Shown here in pieces: positions 5,736 through 10,758 of a stretch of 10,884 nt of DNA (the first letter of the stretch is position 1; every line of letters starts with the position of its first letter). A program made the position numbers and the translations under genes. This DNA comes from a virus (Duplodnaviria > Heunggongvirae > Uroviricota > Caudoviricetes). The notes below the pieces were generated by a model. The model was not told the DNA's origin and ran no database searches. It worked only from the letters and a program-made list of their open reading frames with translations. The stretch lies in IMG/VR virus record IMGVR_UViG_2695420485_000001; one strand, written 5' to 3'.

Positions 5736-5765
5736 TTGACGCGATGATTTATTCGGGGCTATATT
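5736..5765 (+). promoter_or_regulatory. Strong sigma70-like promoter: TTGACG, 18-nt spacer, TATATT
   Basis: -35 at 5736-5741 and -10 at 5760-5765, immediately after the ninE stop, directed rightward toward the inserted module. Confidence 0.5.
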
Positions 5766-5771
5766 CCTCAC

Positions 5772-5848
5772 GCGCCAGCAAAATCTGGCGTCGGGATTAG
5801 CACCCCGGATATCGAAACGGTGCATAACCGCGCTGGCGGTTTTTTTAT
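5772..5848 (+). ncRNA. Candidate short terminated leader or sRNA (~75 nt) from the 5736-5765 promoter, ending at an intrinsic terminator
   Basis: Predicted start near 5772. Internal hairpins cgccag/ctggcg and cggg/cccg. Terminator stem aaccgc (5826-5831) / gcggtt (5836-5841) with loop gctg, followed by seven T. No ORF with a Shine-Dalgarno in the interval. Confidence 0.3.
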
Positions 5849-6010
5849 GCGCTAAGCACAGTCACATTCGCGATTTATGGCGGGCTGTGTGGGGGAGCCG
5901 AAAGGCTCGCCGGATGTTTCGACCGGTAGTGCTAACCCCGCACAGTTCGCCACCACGATGATTAGCACCTGACGGTGGCGAGGTAAAAATTATCGAAACG
6001 CGAGGTCATT

Positions 6011-6688
6011 ATGGCTGTTCAAATTTCTGTCGAAAACCTTTCCCCTGTTACCTATAACCAGATCCCCGTAATTACTACTGAACTGTTGGCTCACCTTTAC
6101 GGAACAAAAATCAAAAACATTTCTGATAACTTTCTGAACAACACGACGCGATTCATGCCCGGAAAGCATTACTTTAAAATTGAAAAAAACGAATTACGCG
6201 AGTTTAAGAACAGACCCGAAACAATCGGGTTAGTTGGTAAAAATGCCCGCGCCCTCATCCTCTGGACAGAACGCGGCGCAGCCCGTCACGCAAAAATGCT
6301 CGAAACCGATCAGGCGTGGGAAGTGTTCGAAAAACTGGAAGACTGCTATTTCAGCCAGTGCGAGAAAAATACTGGCAAACAAGAGAAGAAGCCCAACGGG
6401 CTTTCCGCAAAAGAAACAGACAGCCTTGTATGGCTGTGGGATTATGCCAACCGCTCACAGGCATTGTTCCGTGAGTTGTATCCCGCATTAAAACTGATTC
6501 AGTCTGGCTATTCCGGCATATGCTACGACTACGGTCATGAGTTCTCGTATGTTATTGGAATGGCGAGAGACGTTTTAATTAATCACACACGAGATGTTGA
6601 TATCAATGAGCCAGACGGACCAACGAACCTTCTGGCATGGGAAAGGCTTAAGAACAAAGAGTTGCCGCCTTCACTGCATCGCTACTGA
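6011..6688 (+). CDS. ORF6N (KilA-N-related) domain protein, 225 aa, with an unrecognised C-terminal domain
   Basis: N-terminal ~100 aa fit the ORF6N pattern ([33 protein letters not shown]...[34 protein letters not shown]). GAGGT Shine-Dalgarno 6 nt before the ATG. Followed by its own terminator. Confidence 0.7.
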
Positions 6689-8090: not shown

Positions 8091-8758
8091 ATATCTACGA
8101 AAGAATTGATGGCAGCAAATACCGAAATATTTGGGTAGTTGGCGATCTGCACGGATGCTACACGAACCTGATGAAAAAACTGGAGACGATAGGATTCGAC
8201 ACCAAAAAAGACCTGCTTATCTCGGTGGGCGATTTGGTTGATCGCGGTACAGAGAACGTAGAATGCCTGGAATTAATCACATTCCCCTGGTTCAGAGCTG
8301 TACGTGGAAACCATGAGCAAATGATGATTGATGGCTTATCAGAGCGTGGAAACGTCAATCACTGGATGCTTAATGGCGGTGGCTGGTTCTTTAATCTCGA
8401 TTACGACAAAGAAATTCTGGCTAAAGCTCTTGCCCATAAAGCAGATGAACTTCCGTTAATCATCGAACTGGTGAGCAAAGATAAAAAATATGTCATCTGC
8501 CACGCCGATTATCCTTGTGACGAATACGAGTTTGGAAAGCCAGTTGATCATCAGCAGGTAATCTGGAACCGAGAACGAATCAGCAACTCACAAGACGGGA
8601 TCGTGAAAGAAATTAAAGGCGCGGACACGTTCATCTTTGGTCATACGCCAGCAGTGAAACCGCTCAAATTTGCCAACCAGATGTATATCGATACCGGCGC
8701 AGTGTTCTGCGGAAAGCTCACATTGATTCAGGTACAGGGAGAAGGCGCGTGGGCATAA
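8087..8758 (+). CDS. ninI: NinI Ser/Thr protein phosphatase (lambda PPase), 223 aa
   Basis: Calcineurin-like metallophosphatase motifs GDLHG, GDLVDRG, GNHE; near-identical to lambda phosphatase as recalled. ATGA overlap with the ninG stop. Confidence 0.93.
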
Positions 8759-9237
8759 GAGAACTAAACCTCACCAAAGAACAGCATGAGTGGCTGAATG
8801 GCTGGCTTGAACTGTGGGGCGCATGGGTTTATTCAGGTCGTCTGGAAAAGCGCATGAGCAGCGTAATAGCGAAGTTCATGGAGAGCGTAGAGCCGGGAAG
8901 AGTTATGACAAGACCAATGTGCAATGATGATGATGGAATGTTGATTTCTCAGGTCGTCGATTCCGTCATGTACATTGACAAGAAAGCCTTTGGCATCCTC
9001 CTCAGCTACTACGCTCATGGTTCTTCCAGGCACGCCATTGCATCTTACTATCATCGCGTCGCAAGACCTCGCAAGATGTTATGCCGGGGCGGCGGGCGCA
9101 TTCAAAAACCATCGCTCGCAACCTGTCGACGGGAAGTTGACGAAATCCTTAATGCCTCGTTGTTTATGATTTACCCGGTTCTGGATAGTGCGTTTAAAAA
9201 CCGGAAACGTGTAGAGAAAATTAAACATGTAGCATAG
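8749..9237 (+). CDS. Q: Late-gene antiterminator Q of the non-lambda (phage 82/21, DLP12 QuuD-like) family, 162 aa
   Basis: Occupies the Q slot between ninI and the PR'/tRNA region. Shares WGAW and P-x-C-x-DDD-x-M-I motifs with DLP12 QuuD as recalled; not similar to lambda Q. Likely GTG start at 8749 preceded by GGAGAAGG. Confidence 0.65.
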
Positions 9238-9243
9238 AACGTG

Positions 9244-9272
9244 TTGACATCATTGAGCAAATGAGCAACACT
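9244..9272 (+). promoter_or_regulatory. Candidate late promoter PR' (-35 TTGACA at 9244-9249; -10 uncertain, AACACT at 9267-9272)
   Basis: Consensus -35 immediately after the Q stop, in the position expected for PR'/qut. The -10 is weak, so the transcription start is uncertain. Confidence 0.35.
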
Positions 9273-9282
9273 ATTGGCATAA

Positions 9283-9326
9283 GCTGCCGTTAGTGACTCT
9301 TAAGTTGCAACGGTGGCTTTTTTATT
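9283..9326 (+). terminator. Hairpin plus U-tract just downstream of the PR' candidate (tR'-like, or the Q-modifiable pause/terminator)
   Basis: 9-bp stem gctgccgtt (9283-9291) / aacggtggc (9309-9317) with two G-U pairs and a 17-nt loop containing the palindrome GTTGCAAC, followed by TTTTTTATTT. Confidence 0.45.
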
Positions 9327-9327
9327 T

Positions 9328-9402
9328 GGGTCAGTCGTATAAAGGTCATTACGGAAGGCTGTTAACCTTCTTATCGTGGTTCGAGTCCACGCTGTCCCGC
9401 CA
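9328..9402 (+). tRNA. tRNA-like gene, 75 nt, anticodon loop CUGUUAA (GUU, Asn-type); one U-U mismatch in the acceptor stem
   Basis: Manual cloverleaf: acceptor gggtcag/ctgtccc (6 of 7 paired), D-arm gtat-aaaggtca-ttac, anticodon stem gaagg/ccttc, T-arm cgtgg-ttcgagt-ccacg, discriminator G, encoded CCA. Confidence 0.55.
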
Positions 9403-9407
9403 AACAT

Positions 9408-9483
9408 GCTGGTTTAGCTCCAATGGTAGAGCAACTGACTTGTAATCATCAGGTCGCCAGTTCGATTCCGGTAGCCGGCACCA
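9408..9483 (+). tRNA. tRNA-Thr-like gene, 76 nt, anticodon UGU (loop CUUGUAA); weakened anticodon stem and one T-stem mismatch
   Basis: Resembles E. coli tRNA-Thr(UGU) as recalled (GAGCAACTGACTTGTAATCA...AGGTC...CCAGTTCGATTCCGGTAG...CACCA). Acceptor gctggtt/agccggc includes two G-U pairs. Only 3 of 5 anticodon-stem pairs form (tcatc instead of tcagt). Confidence 0.6.
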
Positions 9484-9486
9484 TAT

Positions 9487-9561
9487 GCGGGTACCGTATA
9501 ATGGCTATTACCTCAGCCTTCCAGTCTGATGATGCGGGTTCGATTCCCGCTACCCGCTCCA
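9487..9561 (+). tRNA. tRNA-like gene, 75 nt, anticodon loop CUUCCAG (UCC, Gly-type by manual fold); C at position 8 and a C-U mismatch closing the anticodon stem
   Basis: Perfect 7-bp acceptor gcgggta/tacccgc, D-arm gtat-aatggcta-ttac (same architecture as the first tRNA-like gene), T-arm gcggg-ttcgatt-cccgc, encoded CCA. Confidence 0.5.
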
Positions 9562-9573
9562 GATTTATTATCA

Positions 9574-9598
9574 GGCTCGCTTCGGCGGGCTTTTTTTG
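9574..9598 (+). terminator. Rho-independent terminator after the tRNA cluster
   Basis: gctcgc ttcg gcgggc, a 6-bp stem with one G-U, then TTTTTTT. Confidence 0.7.
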
Positions 9599-9649
9599 TA
9601 TCTGCGTTACACCATTAACTAATAAATCGAGTGCTTATCAGGAGGCTAT

Positions 9650-9874
9650 GTGAAAAAGCTGATGGTGACGATTGGTCCGTTCGAAACAGAAGTTAGTTTT
9701 CGTGTCGTTCAGGGGGAGAGTGTACTTGTTGAAGATGTATTTCATGGAAAATCAACAGGTCCTTATGTAAAAGAATATTTTGTCGACGCCACGGATGAAA
9801 ATATTGAGGTGGTGTACGATTCCGTCAATCACCCTAATTTGATCATTAAGGCAAAATTGAAACCACTTTATTGA
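9650..9874 (+). CDS. Hypothetical small protein, 74 aa
   Basis: AGGAGG at 9640-9645, GTG start at 9650 with short 4-nt spacing; alternative ATG at 9662 is far from the SD. No family recognised. Located between the tRNA cluster and the downstream late region. Confidence 0.5.
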   Translation: MKKLMVTIGPFETEVSFRVVQGESVLVEDVFHGKSTGPYVKEYFVDATDENIEVVYDSVNHPNLIIKAKLKPLY

Positions 9875-9926: not shown

Positions 9927-10136
9927 ATGTTTGTTGCTGAAGGGGTAATGGAAGATAAGGACAACAAAGGATGTGTTAAAGGTTGGGCTGTGGTAAGAAA
10001 CTCGCCATGGCATCTTGTTGGGGTTTTTGCGACAGAGGAAGACGCGGAAATGGAAGCAAGAAAGACGGGAGATGAGTACGAGGTTCACTATGGCTCGCAT
10101 CGAACAGGAAGTGATGATTTTGTCTGGGGGGAGTAA
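9927..10136 (+). CDS. Hypothetical small acidic protein, 69 aa
   Basis: Strong AAGGAG Shine-Dalgarno 7 nt before the ATG at 9927. Followed by a terminator. No family recognised. Confidence 0.6.
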   Translation: MFVAEGVMEDKDNKGCVKGWAVVRNSPWHLVGVFATEEDAEMEARKTGDEYEVHYGSHRTGSDDFVWGE

Positions 10137-10195: not shown

Positions 10196-10326
10196 TATCC
10201 GCGCCACGCCCGGCGCATATCAACCACAGAGCCTTTCGGGGGTGAGCTTACGGAGTGGTCAGTGTGACTTTCTCTGTGGGCAGATCGCTCCCGGGCGTTG
10301 GCTCACCCACCCAAAGGAACGTCACG

Positions 10327-10758
10327 ATGTTTGGTATTTTTGGTAAAAAAGCCCGCCGAGCGGCAGTGGAAATTAAAAAGTTTGAGAAACGTGATCTGGC
10401 ACAGGCGGTTATTAATGCTGCCTATCTGGTGGCCTATGCAGATGGTGAATGTGAGGCTTCAGAGAAAGCGAAGATCGAGCAGGTCTTGCGTAACCAGCCT
10501 GCGTTGTCCGCGTTTACGTCAGAAATTAATGCGATTAGCGCAACCATTATCGGTCAGCTGGATACGAACTTTAAAACTGGTCGTCGAGCGGCATTGCGTG
10601 AAATTGAAGATGTGAAACACGATACGCGTGAAGCGGAAGATGTGCTGGATGTGGCGGTGGCCATTGCGGAGGCAGACGGCGAAATTGAGCCGGAAGAGCG
10701 CAAGGTGCTGGAAGAGATTGCCGGTGTTCTGGGTCTTCGTCTGGAGAATCACCTGTGA
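10327..10758 (+). CDS. TerB-like (tellurite-resistance TerB family) domain protein, 143 aa
   Basis: From the ATG at 10327 (MFGIFGKKARRAAVEIKK...); the track ORF begins at an upstream alternative start. Two VA-x-ADG-E acidic repeats (LVAYADGECEASEKAKIE and VAIAEADGEIEPEERKVLEEIAGVLG) typical of TerB. Confidence 0.65.
   Translation: MFGIFGKKARRAAVEIKKFEKRDLAQAVINAAYLVAYADGECEASEKAKIEQVLRNQPALSAFTSEINAISATIIGQLDTNFKTGRRAALREIEDVKHDTREAEDVLDVAVAIAEADGEIEPEERKVLEEIAGVLGLRLENHL

Follow-up and report, generated by a model that had tools for sequence, protein, structure and literature searches.

A pair of transfer RNA (tRNA) genes, tRNA-Asn and tRNA-Thr, located after the antiterminator gene Q has already been described in phages 21, Sf6, SfI, ST64T, PS3, and BTP1, and the Stx phages carry the tRNA genes ileZ-argN-argO downstream of Q. 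The Stx-phage genes occupy the same place in the lambdoid late operon and are classically explained by rare codons. Here, we analyze a 10,884-nucleotide (nt) stretch of viral DNA (IMG/VR record IMGVR_UViG_2695420485_000001; this entire stretch is referred to below as the window), in which Q is followed by three tRNA genes, tRNA-Asn(GUU), tRNA-Thr(UGU), and tRNA-Gly(UCC). The anticodons of the Stx-phage tRNAs (for AUA and AGA/AGG) differ from those of this trio, and the window phage lacks such genes even though its late genes over-use the codons in question.

The OLD protein of phage P2, which causes P2-lambda interference, kills cells by cutting host tRNA-Thr(UGU) in the anticodon stem, after the C of a paired CNG motif at positions 28-30/40-42 (PMC12445682). 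Phage tRNA-Thr(UGU) genes rescue from OLD, and tRNA-Thr6 and tRNA-Thr21 are OLD-resistant; rescue and resistance to cleavage were shown for phage 21 tRNA-Thr and for library tRNAs. For resistance, the CNG motif must be altered and the anticodon stem shortened as well; host tRNA-ThrU gives little to no protection, and the phage tRNA leaves the host tRNA unprotected (PMC12445682). We take tRNA-Thr21 to be the phage 21 gene from the wording of that paper and from record OL657228. According to a 2026 preprint (bioRxiv 10.64898/2026.07.10.737580), OLD depletes Thr(UGU), Gly(UCC), fMet, Val(UAC), and Pro(UGG), and phage tRNAs act by replacement, not competition. The AriB nuclease of the PARIS system cleaves tRNAs between positions 40 and 41, beside U36-A-A-U; Lys(UUU), its prime target, and Thr(UGU) are efficient substrates and Asn(GUU) is a weaker one. 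AriB also reads distal features, and Lys, Thr, and Asn tRNA variants of phage T5 jointly neutralise PARIS (PMC12409363). The specificities of the window trio are thus those of the two leading OLD targets and of two of the three biologically relevant PARIS targets. HepS-type anticodon nucleases, which target Thr tRNAs but mainly Thr(GGU), were also considered, and were set aside as having no specific link to the trio.

We conclude that positions 9328-9561 of the window contain three genuine tRNA genes, Asn, Thr, and Gly, which open the late operon of a lambda-like Escherichia coli prophage. The original prediction, made by reading the DNA, had placed three tRNA-like genes downstream of Q, and its provisional anticodons proved correct. 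All three genes match the Rfam tRNA model RF00005 (gathering score 29 bits; the E-values in Table 1 are window-wide) with scores of 55.3 (Asn), 49.0 (Thr), and 49.2 bits (Gly), and the upstream gene is recognized as Q by PF06530. ARAGORN called Asn(gtt) and Gly(tcc), and NCBI annotated tRNA-Asn, tRNA-Thr, and tRNA-Gly in a 100%-identical prophage of E. coli Z1323HEC0393. The same trio, with the chimeric Thr gene discussed below, is listed in the GenBank record of phage JLK-2012 (JQ347801 / NC_049942), which is 99.7% identical to the window region over 357 nt and whose Gly gene lacks one substitution, G39U. The genes are separated by spacers of 5 nt (Asn-Thr) and 3 nt (Thr-Gly). Each has a 7-nt anticodon loop (CUGUUAA in Asn, CUUGUAA in Thr, CUUCCAG in Gly) with U33 and a purine at position 37, and a T-loop of the UUCGA type (UUCGAGU in Asn, UUCGAUU in Thr and Gly). 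The encoded CCA, the discriminators (G73, A73, and U73, respectively), G1-C72, C2-G71, and, in Gly, also G3-C70 are kept along with the anticodons; the sets of identity elements used here come from the established tRNA literature.

The irregularities listed in the original prediction are all present: a U4·U69 mismatch in the Asn acceptor stem, only three anticodon-stem pairs in Thr, and C8 with C31·U39 in Gly. It is misleading to call all of them defects, since U4·U69 is kept throughout nearly the whole Asn family, and a short anticodon stem is on record as one of the features that make phage tRNA-Thr resistant. We consider it probable that the trio consists of functional late-operon tRNAs that replace host isoacceptors that are limiting or have been destroyed by tRNases, and that the irregularities of Asn and Thr are escape features. 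The genes would be transcribed when Q allows readthrough of the terminator tR', and the tRNAs would then be excised from the late transcript. They would sustain late-gene translation whenever host Asn(GUU), Thr(UGU), and Gly(UCC) become limiting, chiefly when ATPase-Toprim tRNases (P2 OLD and PARIS AriB), carried by competing P2-like prophages and P4-like satellites, cut the anticodon stems of host tRNAs. Escape of Asn and Thr would come from altered or shortened anticodon stems from which cleavage motifs have gone. Since the anticodon, the aminoacylation identity, and the remaining cloverleaf are kept, the phage copies could stand in for cleaved host tRNAs. Increased decoding of ACA/ACG and GGA/GGG, which late genes use about twice as often as the host does, would be a compatible second benefit. 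That the chimeric tRNA-Thr, the tRNA-Asn, and especially the mutated tRNA-Gly of the window are themselves resistant and active is something we infer.

Among the functions offered by the original prediction, a role connected with anticodon nucleases is nearest to experiments, but in the form of cleavage-resistant replacements and not of decoys, because phage tRNA-Thr left the host tRNA unprotected. As decoys, the phage tRNAs would titrate the nucleases and shield host tRNAs, and a role in translation would be unneeded. Competition by over-expressed viral tRNAs was raised as a possibility by the PARIS authors (PMC12409363); the published rescue, however, went through replacement, restoring ACA decoding, and the trio has conserved identity elements and anticodons, which a pure decoy does not need. 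We regard a decoy function as very improbable.

The tRNA-Asn of the window does not differ from the tRNA-Asn of phage 21. For the Asn, Thr, and Gly families, distinct variants were tabulated from viral contigs and their base pairs counted, with Asn genes taken from the flanks of Thr loci. (Generic Asn and Thr anticodon-arm patterns returned at least 120 loci from viral contigs; these were unrelated tRNAs, including ones from giant-virus contigs, and hardly any belonged to this family.) The Asn family comprises two alleles that are three compensatory pairs apart (6-67, 7-66, and 28-42), and position 4 remains unpaired with position 69, as U4·U69, in 15 of its 16 distinct variants. Another irregularity, U13·U22, is found at the end of the D-stem. 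The anticodon stem reads AAG/CUU versus CGG/CCG in the host, with both CNG motifs lost, and the AriB site is UAACCU versus host UAAUCC, i.e., C39/U41 in place of U39/C41. The two resistance substitutions of T5 tRNA-Lys fall at the same positions, 39 and 41. The body of tRNA-Asn is nearer to host glyT (72% identity, with the same 4-nt variable loop and an A/U-rich D-arm) than to host asnT (63%). By this resemblance, a Gly(UCC)-type scaffold could have been recruited for the GUU anticodon in the phage tRNA-Asn.

The tRNA-Thr is a chimera, a feature that the original prediction had overlooked. Its nucleotides 1-26 (9408-9433) are identical to phage 21 tRNA-Thr at 26 of 26 positions and to host thrU at 19, while nucleotides 27-76 (9434-9483) match thrU at 46 of 50 positions and phage 21 tRNA-Thr at 31. 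Judging by these matches, a gene of the phage 21 type supplied the 5' part and a thrU-like gene the 3' part, so that, unlike the Asn gene, the Thr gene is of phage 21 type only up to nucleotide 26 and thrU-derived from nucleotide 27 on (anticodon arm, T-arm, and 3' acceptor strand). Recombination of a thrU-glyT cassette with the Asn-Thr module of phage 21, inside the segment GGUAGAGCA common to both Thr genes, accounts for the arrangement seen in the window. The host genes thrU and glyT, which encode tufB-operon tRNAs, are the source of the 3' two-thirds of the Thr gene and of the whole Gly gene.

Two substitutions in the host-derived part of tRNA-Thr, G42U and U43C, create A27·C43 and C28·U42 mismatches and leave three of the five anticodon-stem pairs of the host tRNA. 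They also change the 3' CNG motif at positions 40-42 from CAG to CAU; the 5' motif, CUG, is kept. The sequence therefore carries both published OLD-resistance factors, an altered CNG motif and a shortened stem, together with the UGU anticodon. In phage 21 tRNA-Thr, one pair (27-43) is broken, compared with two (27-43 and 28-42) in the window. The phage 21 Thr family contains five compensatory pairs, and G27·A43 is unpaired in all 17 of its variants. The G42U/U43C change is also present in a non-chimeric thrU-like gene (locus L297), and the scanned viral-contig loci, taken together with the loci retrieved before them, contain the window-type Thr sequence nine times. Seven E. coli genome records cover at least 80% of the tRNA region, and six O55:H7 records cover 78%.

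The tRNAs of T5, a virulent phage with about 24 tRNAs, have sequences unrelated to those of the window. T5 tRNA-Thr and tRNA-Asn nevertheless share their anticodons with the window trio, and in both sets the stems are mismatched and bases at positions 39-41 are changed; unlike T5, the window has no Lys(UUU) gene, and its Thr keeps UAAUCA. T5 Asn, Thr, and Gly all have anticodon-stem mismatches, and T5 Thr and Gly carry A8. The tetranucleotide CAUC at positions 40-43 is common to T5 tRNA-Thr(UGU) (L478 668-742) and the window tRNA-Thr (9447-9450), genes that are otherwise unrelated. Convergence or gene conversion could account for this likeness.

The tRNA-Gly is identical to host glyT at 70 of 75 bases (93.3%), and chromosomal glyT is present in more than 5,000 E. 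coli genomes. It differs by the compensatory change C6U/G67A and by U8C, A38G, and G39U, the source of its C8 and of the C31·U39 mismatch. In the glyT-like family, 14 of 21 pairs covary among the viral-contig variants, and positions 8 and 38 are otherwise near-invariant. With three to 14 compensatory or covarying pairs in each of the families, the tRNAs must be under selection for structure, and the mismatches of Asn and phage 21 Thr are conserved features. The original prediction had compared the D-arms of Asn (GUAUAAAGGUCAUUAC) and Gly (GUAUAAUGGCUAUUAC); these are indeed alike (13 of 16 bases), but the common origin proposed from them does not hold, Gly being a captured glyT and Asn being the phage 21 gene. 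Both Gly CNG motifs, CAG and CUG, are kept, and only the 31-39 pair is lost, so that the combination of altered CNG motif and short stem is not found in Gly. In the predicted minimum-energy fold, the A38G allele closes the anticodon loop, and a C32-G38 pair is possible. Minimum-energy folding was used only to note this extension of the Gly anticodon helix by A38G; folds of single sequences are uninformative on function, because host thrU and asnT also fail to give a cloverleaf. Since G39U is rare, the function of the Gly gene is uncertain, and from its sequence it may be either a further escape variant or a gene starting to decay.

The related alleles can be arranged in an ordered series. At the L440 locus, the Thr chimera has an intact host-type anticodon arm, and Gly is near wild type (U11C only). 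The O55:H7 CB9615 type adds G42U, U43C, and A49G in Thr, and its Gly has C6U/G67A, G10A, and A38G. In the JLK-2012 type, Thr gains U68C, which restores G5-C68, and Gly has U8C in place of G10A. The window type has the JLK-2012 Thr and adds G39U in Gly. We interpret these alleles, from their sequences, as steps leading from an L440-like chimera through G42U/U43C/A38G and U68C to G39U. Thr and Gly carry seven lineage-specific substitutions, four of them at positions 38-43 (P = 0.002, for a region picked post hoc). The trio of E. coli O55:H7 and related prophages is the same as that of the window; in the CB9615 allele, however, U68C is missing from Thr, Gly carries G10A but not U8C, and a different Q and promoter precede the genes. 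In this prophage (L005 2455-2560 versus window 9238-9335), the Q-binding and promoter sequences are unrelated to those of the window, while tR' and the tRNAs are the same, which places a mosaic junction just 5' of the terminator stem.

A cassette of thrU, a TAT spacer, and glyT recurs in many viral and prophage contigs (L260, L262, L291, L292, and others; L004 2922-3075), and the same TAT spacer is found in the window. These cassettes are mostly host-identical or carry compensatory differences only, whereas in the window lineage anticodon-arm changes without compensation have been added. The chromosomal order is thrU-tyrU-glyT, and the prophage cassette looks like this host cluster from which tyrU has been precisely removed. 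In ETEC4070, the cassette is preceded by another Q gene and by a tRNA with an Ile annotation.

Codon usage was compared between 31 late genes of the identical prophage (7,843 codons) and 40 K-12 genes from a 50-kb sample (15,040 codons); frequencies are per thousand. ACA (11.0 in late genes versus 5.5 in K-12), ACG (23.8 versus 12.5), GGA (12.2 versus 6.1), and GGG (23.5 versus 9.2) are 1.9- to 2.5-fold more common in late genes. The codon compensation offered by the original prediction is thus borne out in part, for Thr and Gly; it fails for Asn, whose codons (AAU plus AAC) are used at 38.3 versus 36.5. If the trio served purely to supply more isoacceptors for codons over-used in late genes, with the mismatches being neutral, the same ACA bias reported in SfI for the homologous Asn-Thr pair (PMC3636060) would be accounted for, and host-identical prophage Thr-Gly cassettes can indeed act through dosage only. 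The role of the Asn gene was, however, "not clear" to the SfI authors themselves (PMC3636060), and the codons most enriched in late genes, AGG (6-fold), CGG (4.5-fold), AGA (4-fold), and AUA (2.8-fold), have no cognate tRNA in the trio. Pure codon supplementation also leaves unexplained why conserved anticodon-stem mismatches stand beside compensatory changes, and why phage 21 tRNA-Thr protects against OLD while host tRNA-ThrU scarcely does (PMC12445682). We therefore consider it unlikely as the sole explanation. Codon supply is plausible as a secondary benefit for Thr and Gly and was likely the original role of the host-identical cassette; it explains neither the Asn gene nor the stem changes.

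Several observations weigh against replacement of nuclease-cleaved host tRNAs as the function of the trio. PARIS could not be neutralised by the trio alone, since it includes no Lys(UUU) gene; neither ARAGORN nor Rfam found a tRNA-Lys gene anywhere in the window. The P2 old gene (L477 3621-5381) was detected by megablast in only 17 of 5,426 complete E. coli genomes, and the phage 21-type Asn-Thr module, with 824 records in the 90-95% identity band, is apparently far more common; given this rarity of P2 old, nuclease pressure, if it is the driver, must come from the wider OLD/PARIS family. The 17 loci with cassettes 100% identical to both host thrU and glyT are ruled out as escape variants; they suggest that the ancestral cassette served dosage or codon supply. 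In tRNA-Thr, the AriB site U36-A-A-U-C-A41 is the same as in the host and the 5' CNG motif is intact, although pairs 27-43 and 28-42 and the D-loop are unlike those of the host. The clustering of substitutions in the allele series, when calculated over the whole anticodon arm, gives P = 0.09. As for Gly, 25 of the 26 variants of its family maintain pair 31-39, with covariation, and the window type alone has it broken, and the exact window Gly sequence, with G39U, occurs in three of the 5,426 complete genomes. Because the lost Gly pair is 31-39 and not at the 27-43 end, and the CNG motifs are kept, the published two-factor rule predicts no resistance. Finally, the ARAGORN scan of the window bore out two of the three genes, leaving Thr uncalled, and NCBI annotation skipped the CB9615 Thr allele.

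Some of the same observations would fit decay, in which illegitimate recombination of two cassettes would have produced pseudogenes, namely the chimeric Thr and the mutated Gly, with Asn alone being functional. The recombinant nature of Thr, its absence from the ARAGORN calls, and the three acceptor-stem G·U pairs of the CB9615 allele left uncalled by NCBI are consistent with this, as are, in Gly, the changes U8C, A38G, and G39U at otherwise near-invariant positions, the possible C32-G38 pair with its closed anticodon loop in the predicted fold, and the near absence of the exact window sequence from the genomes searched. Yet both genes still score 49 bits with the Rfam model, and CCA, discriminators, G1-C72, C2-G71, U33, and anticodons are all intact. 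U68C brings back a Watson-Crick pair after the recombination, G42U/U43C recurs outside the chimera, and the window-type Thr has been recovered repeatedly, at nine loci; the region is covered in E. coli genomes by the seven records at 80% or more and the six O55:H7 records at 78%. A base other than U at position 8 is not disqualifying, since T5 Thr and Gly have A8 and, according to the T5 record, a changed anticodon turns T5 Gly into an effective suppressor. Decay as an account of Thr and Gly together thus seems to us quite improbable; among the three genes, it is a live possibility only for Gly and, less so, for Thr.

A more specific form of the replacement model may be offered tentatively, as possible but on balance doubtful. 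The locus could be an island directed against Toprim tRNases and caught in mid-assembly: the cassette would have recombined into phage 21 Thr, the chimera would have re-evolved a short, CNG-altered stem converging on that of T5 Thr, and the Gly arm would be undergoing remodelling (A38G, then G39U) under OLD-like pressure. If this is true, Asn(GUU) gains a rationale as a secondary target of both PARIS and OLD, and Gly would be the first anti-OLD phage tRNA-Gly, escaping through the loss of the 31-39 pair, outside the published two-factor rule.

The surroundings of the trio (Table 1) closely follow phage 21. Over 8736-9485, the window shares 96% identity with the antiterminator region of phage 21, and the two late regions have in common a Q21-type antiterminator, pR', the Q-binding element, tR', and an identical tRNA-Asn; the window differs by an additional Gly gene and a second terminator that follow. 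In the identical prophage, the counterpart of the Q gene carries the annotation antiterminator Q family protein. Relative to the late regulatory region of phage 21, the 90-base stretch from Q to tRNA-Asn has a single substitution and lacks one T, and promoter and terminator positions were transferred from the phage 21 record; a simple consensus scan called neither pR' nor tR', whose loop is 17 nt. Since the tRNA genes lie behind tR', their transcription would, on the phage 21 model, depend mainly on modification of RNA polymerase by Q and coincide with that of the late genes. The terminator-like hairpin that follows the Gly gene is absent from the ETEC4070 cassette.

Table 1. Coordinates of the tRNA genes and of neighbouring features in the window
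Feature	Position	Strand	Description	Source
tRNA-Asn(GUU)	9328..9402	+	75 nt, CCA encoded, discriminator G73	RF00005 match 9328-9399, E 5.7e-10; ARAGORN 9328-9402
tRNA-Thr(UGU), chimeric	9408..9483	+	76 nt, CCA encoded	RF00005 match 9408-9480, E 3.2e-8; NCBI annotation
tRNA-Gly(UCC), captured host glyT	9487..9561	+	75 nt, CCA encoded, discriminator U73	RF00005 match 9487-9558, E 2.8e-8; ARAGORN 9487-9561
Q antiterminator gene, phage-21 type	8749..9237	+		PF06530 Phage_antitermQ, 85.6 bits
Late promoter pR' and terminator tR'	9244..9327	+		transferred from phage 21 record OL657228
pR' -35 element	9244-9249	+	TTGACA	transferred from OL657228
Q-binding element	9252-9267	+		transferred from OL657228
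Transcription start	~9279	+		transferred from OL657228
tR' hairpin and U-tract	9281-9327	+	abuts G1 of tRNA-Asn	transferred from OL657228
Terminator-like hairpin 3' of Gly gene	9573..9599	+	8-pair stem 9573-9592, UUCG tetraloop, U7 tract TTTTTGTATC	terminator scan

The Z1323HEC0393 prophage with the identical tRNA region is lambda-like, with lambda-type head and tail genes, and adjoins the bio operon; compared with it, the window as a whole is a mosaic. A role of the tRNA genes as an integration site was rejected, since the genes are located within the late operon and the neighbour of the identical prophage is the bio operon, not a tRNA gene. Two open reading frames from a mechanical list, 9293-9445 (50 amino acids) and 9423-9653 (76 amino acids), overlap the tRNA genes; they were treated as spurious and are almost certainly not genes. 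Right after the tRNAs, small open reading frames at 9650-9874 and 9927-10136 (74 and 69 amino acids) have no Pfam match, and the one at 10255-10758 is TerB-like and is named tciA in JLK-2012. Beyond its tail-fibre genes, the Z1323HEC0393 prophage (L475 8300-10956) carries genes of type III secretion effectors (NleG family and EspS). Elsewhere in the window, Rfam revealed a c4-a1b1 target element (5759-5811), an isrK-like RNA (5772-5846, 76.6 bits), and a C4 antisense RNA (5873-5957, 75.1 bits), and the open reading frame directly downstream of these RNAs (6011-6688) is of the antirepressor type, with ORF6N and P22AR C-terminal domains. The segment 5759-6688 is a P1/P7 immI-like C4/ant module within a lambdoid nin region.

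The trio is annotated in public records, and the literature already covers the Asn-Thr module as well as the action of phage 21 tRNA-Thr against OLD. In none of the papers searched did we find the chimeric origin of Thr and the allele series, the derivation and remodelling of Gly, or the match of the trio to OLD and PARIS targets. The tRNA genes after Q in lambdoid and P22-like phages have long been ascribed to codon usage, an explanation into which Asn never fitted (PMC3636060). Studies from 2025-2026 have shown Thr(UGU), Gly(UCC), and Asn(GUU) to be cut in the anticodon stem by P2 OLD or AriB, and OLD to be countered by phage 21 tRNA-Thr; the window clusters exactly those three specificities in a late operon. 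Mismatches in the stems of phage tRNAs should not be taken as marks of pseudogenes, and genes of this kind can be overlooked by ARAGORN and by NCBI annotation. The related loci form a natural mutant series that extends from host-identical anticodon arms to arms with shortened stems, and this series bears on which substitutions confer resistance, on the function of chimeric tRNAs, and on the part played by Gly(UCC) in P2-lambda interference.

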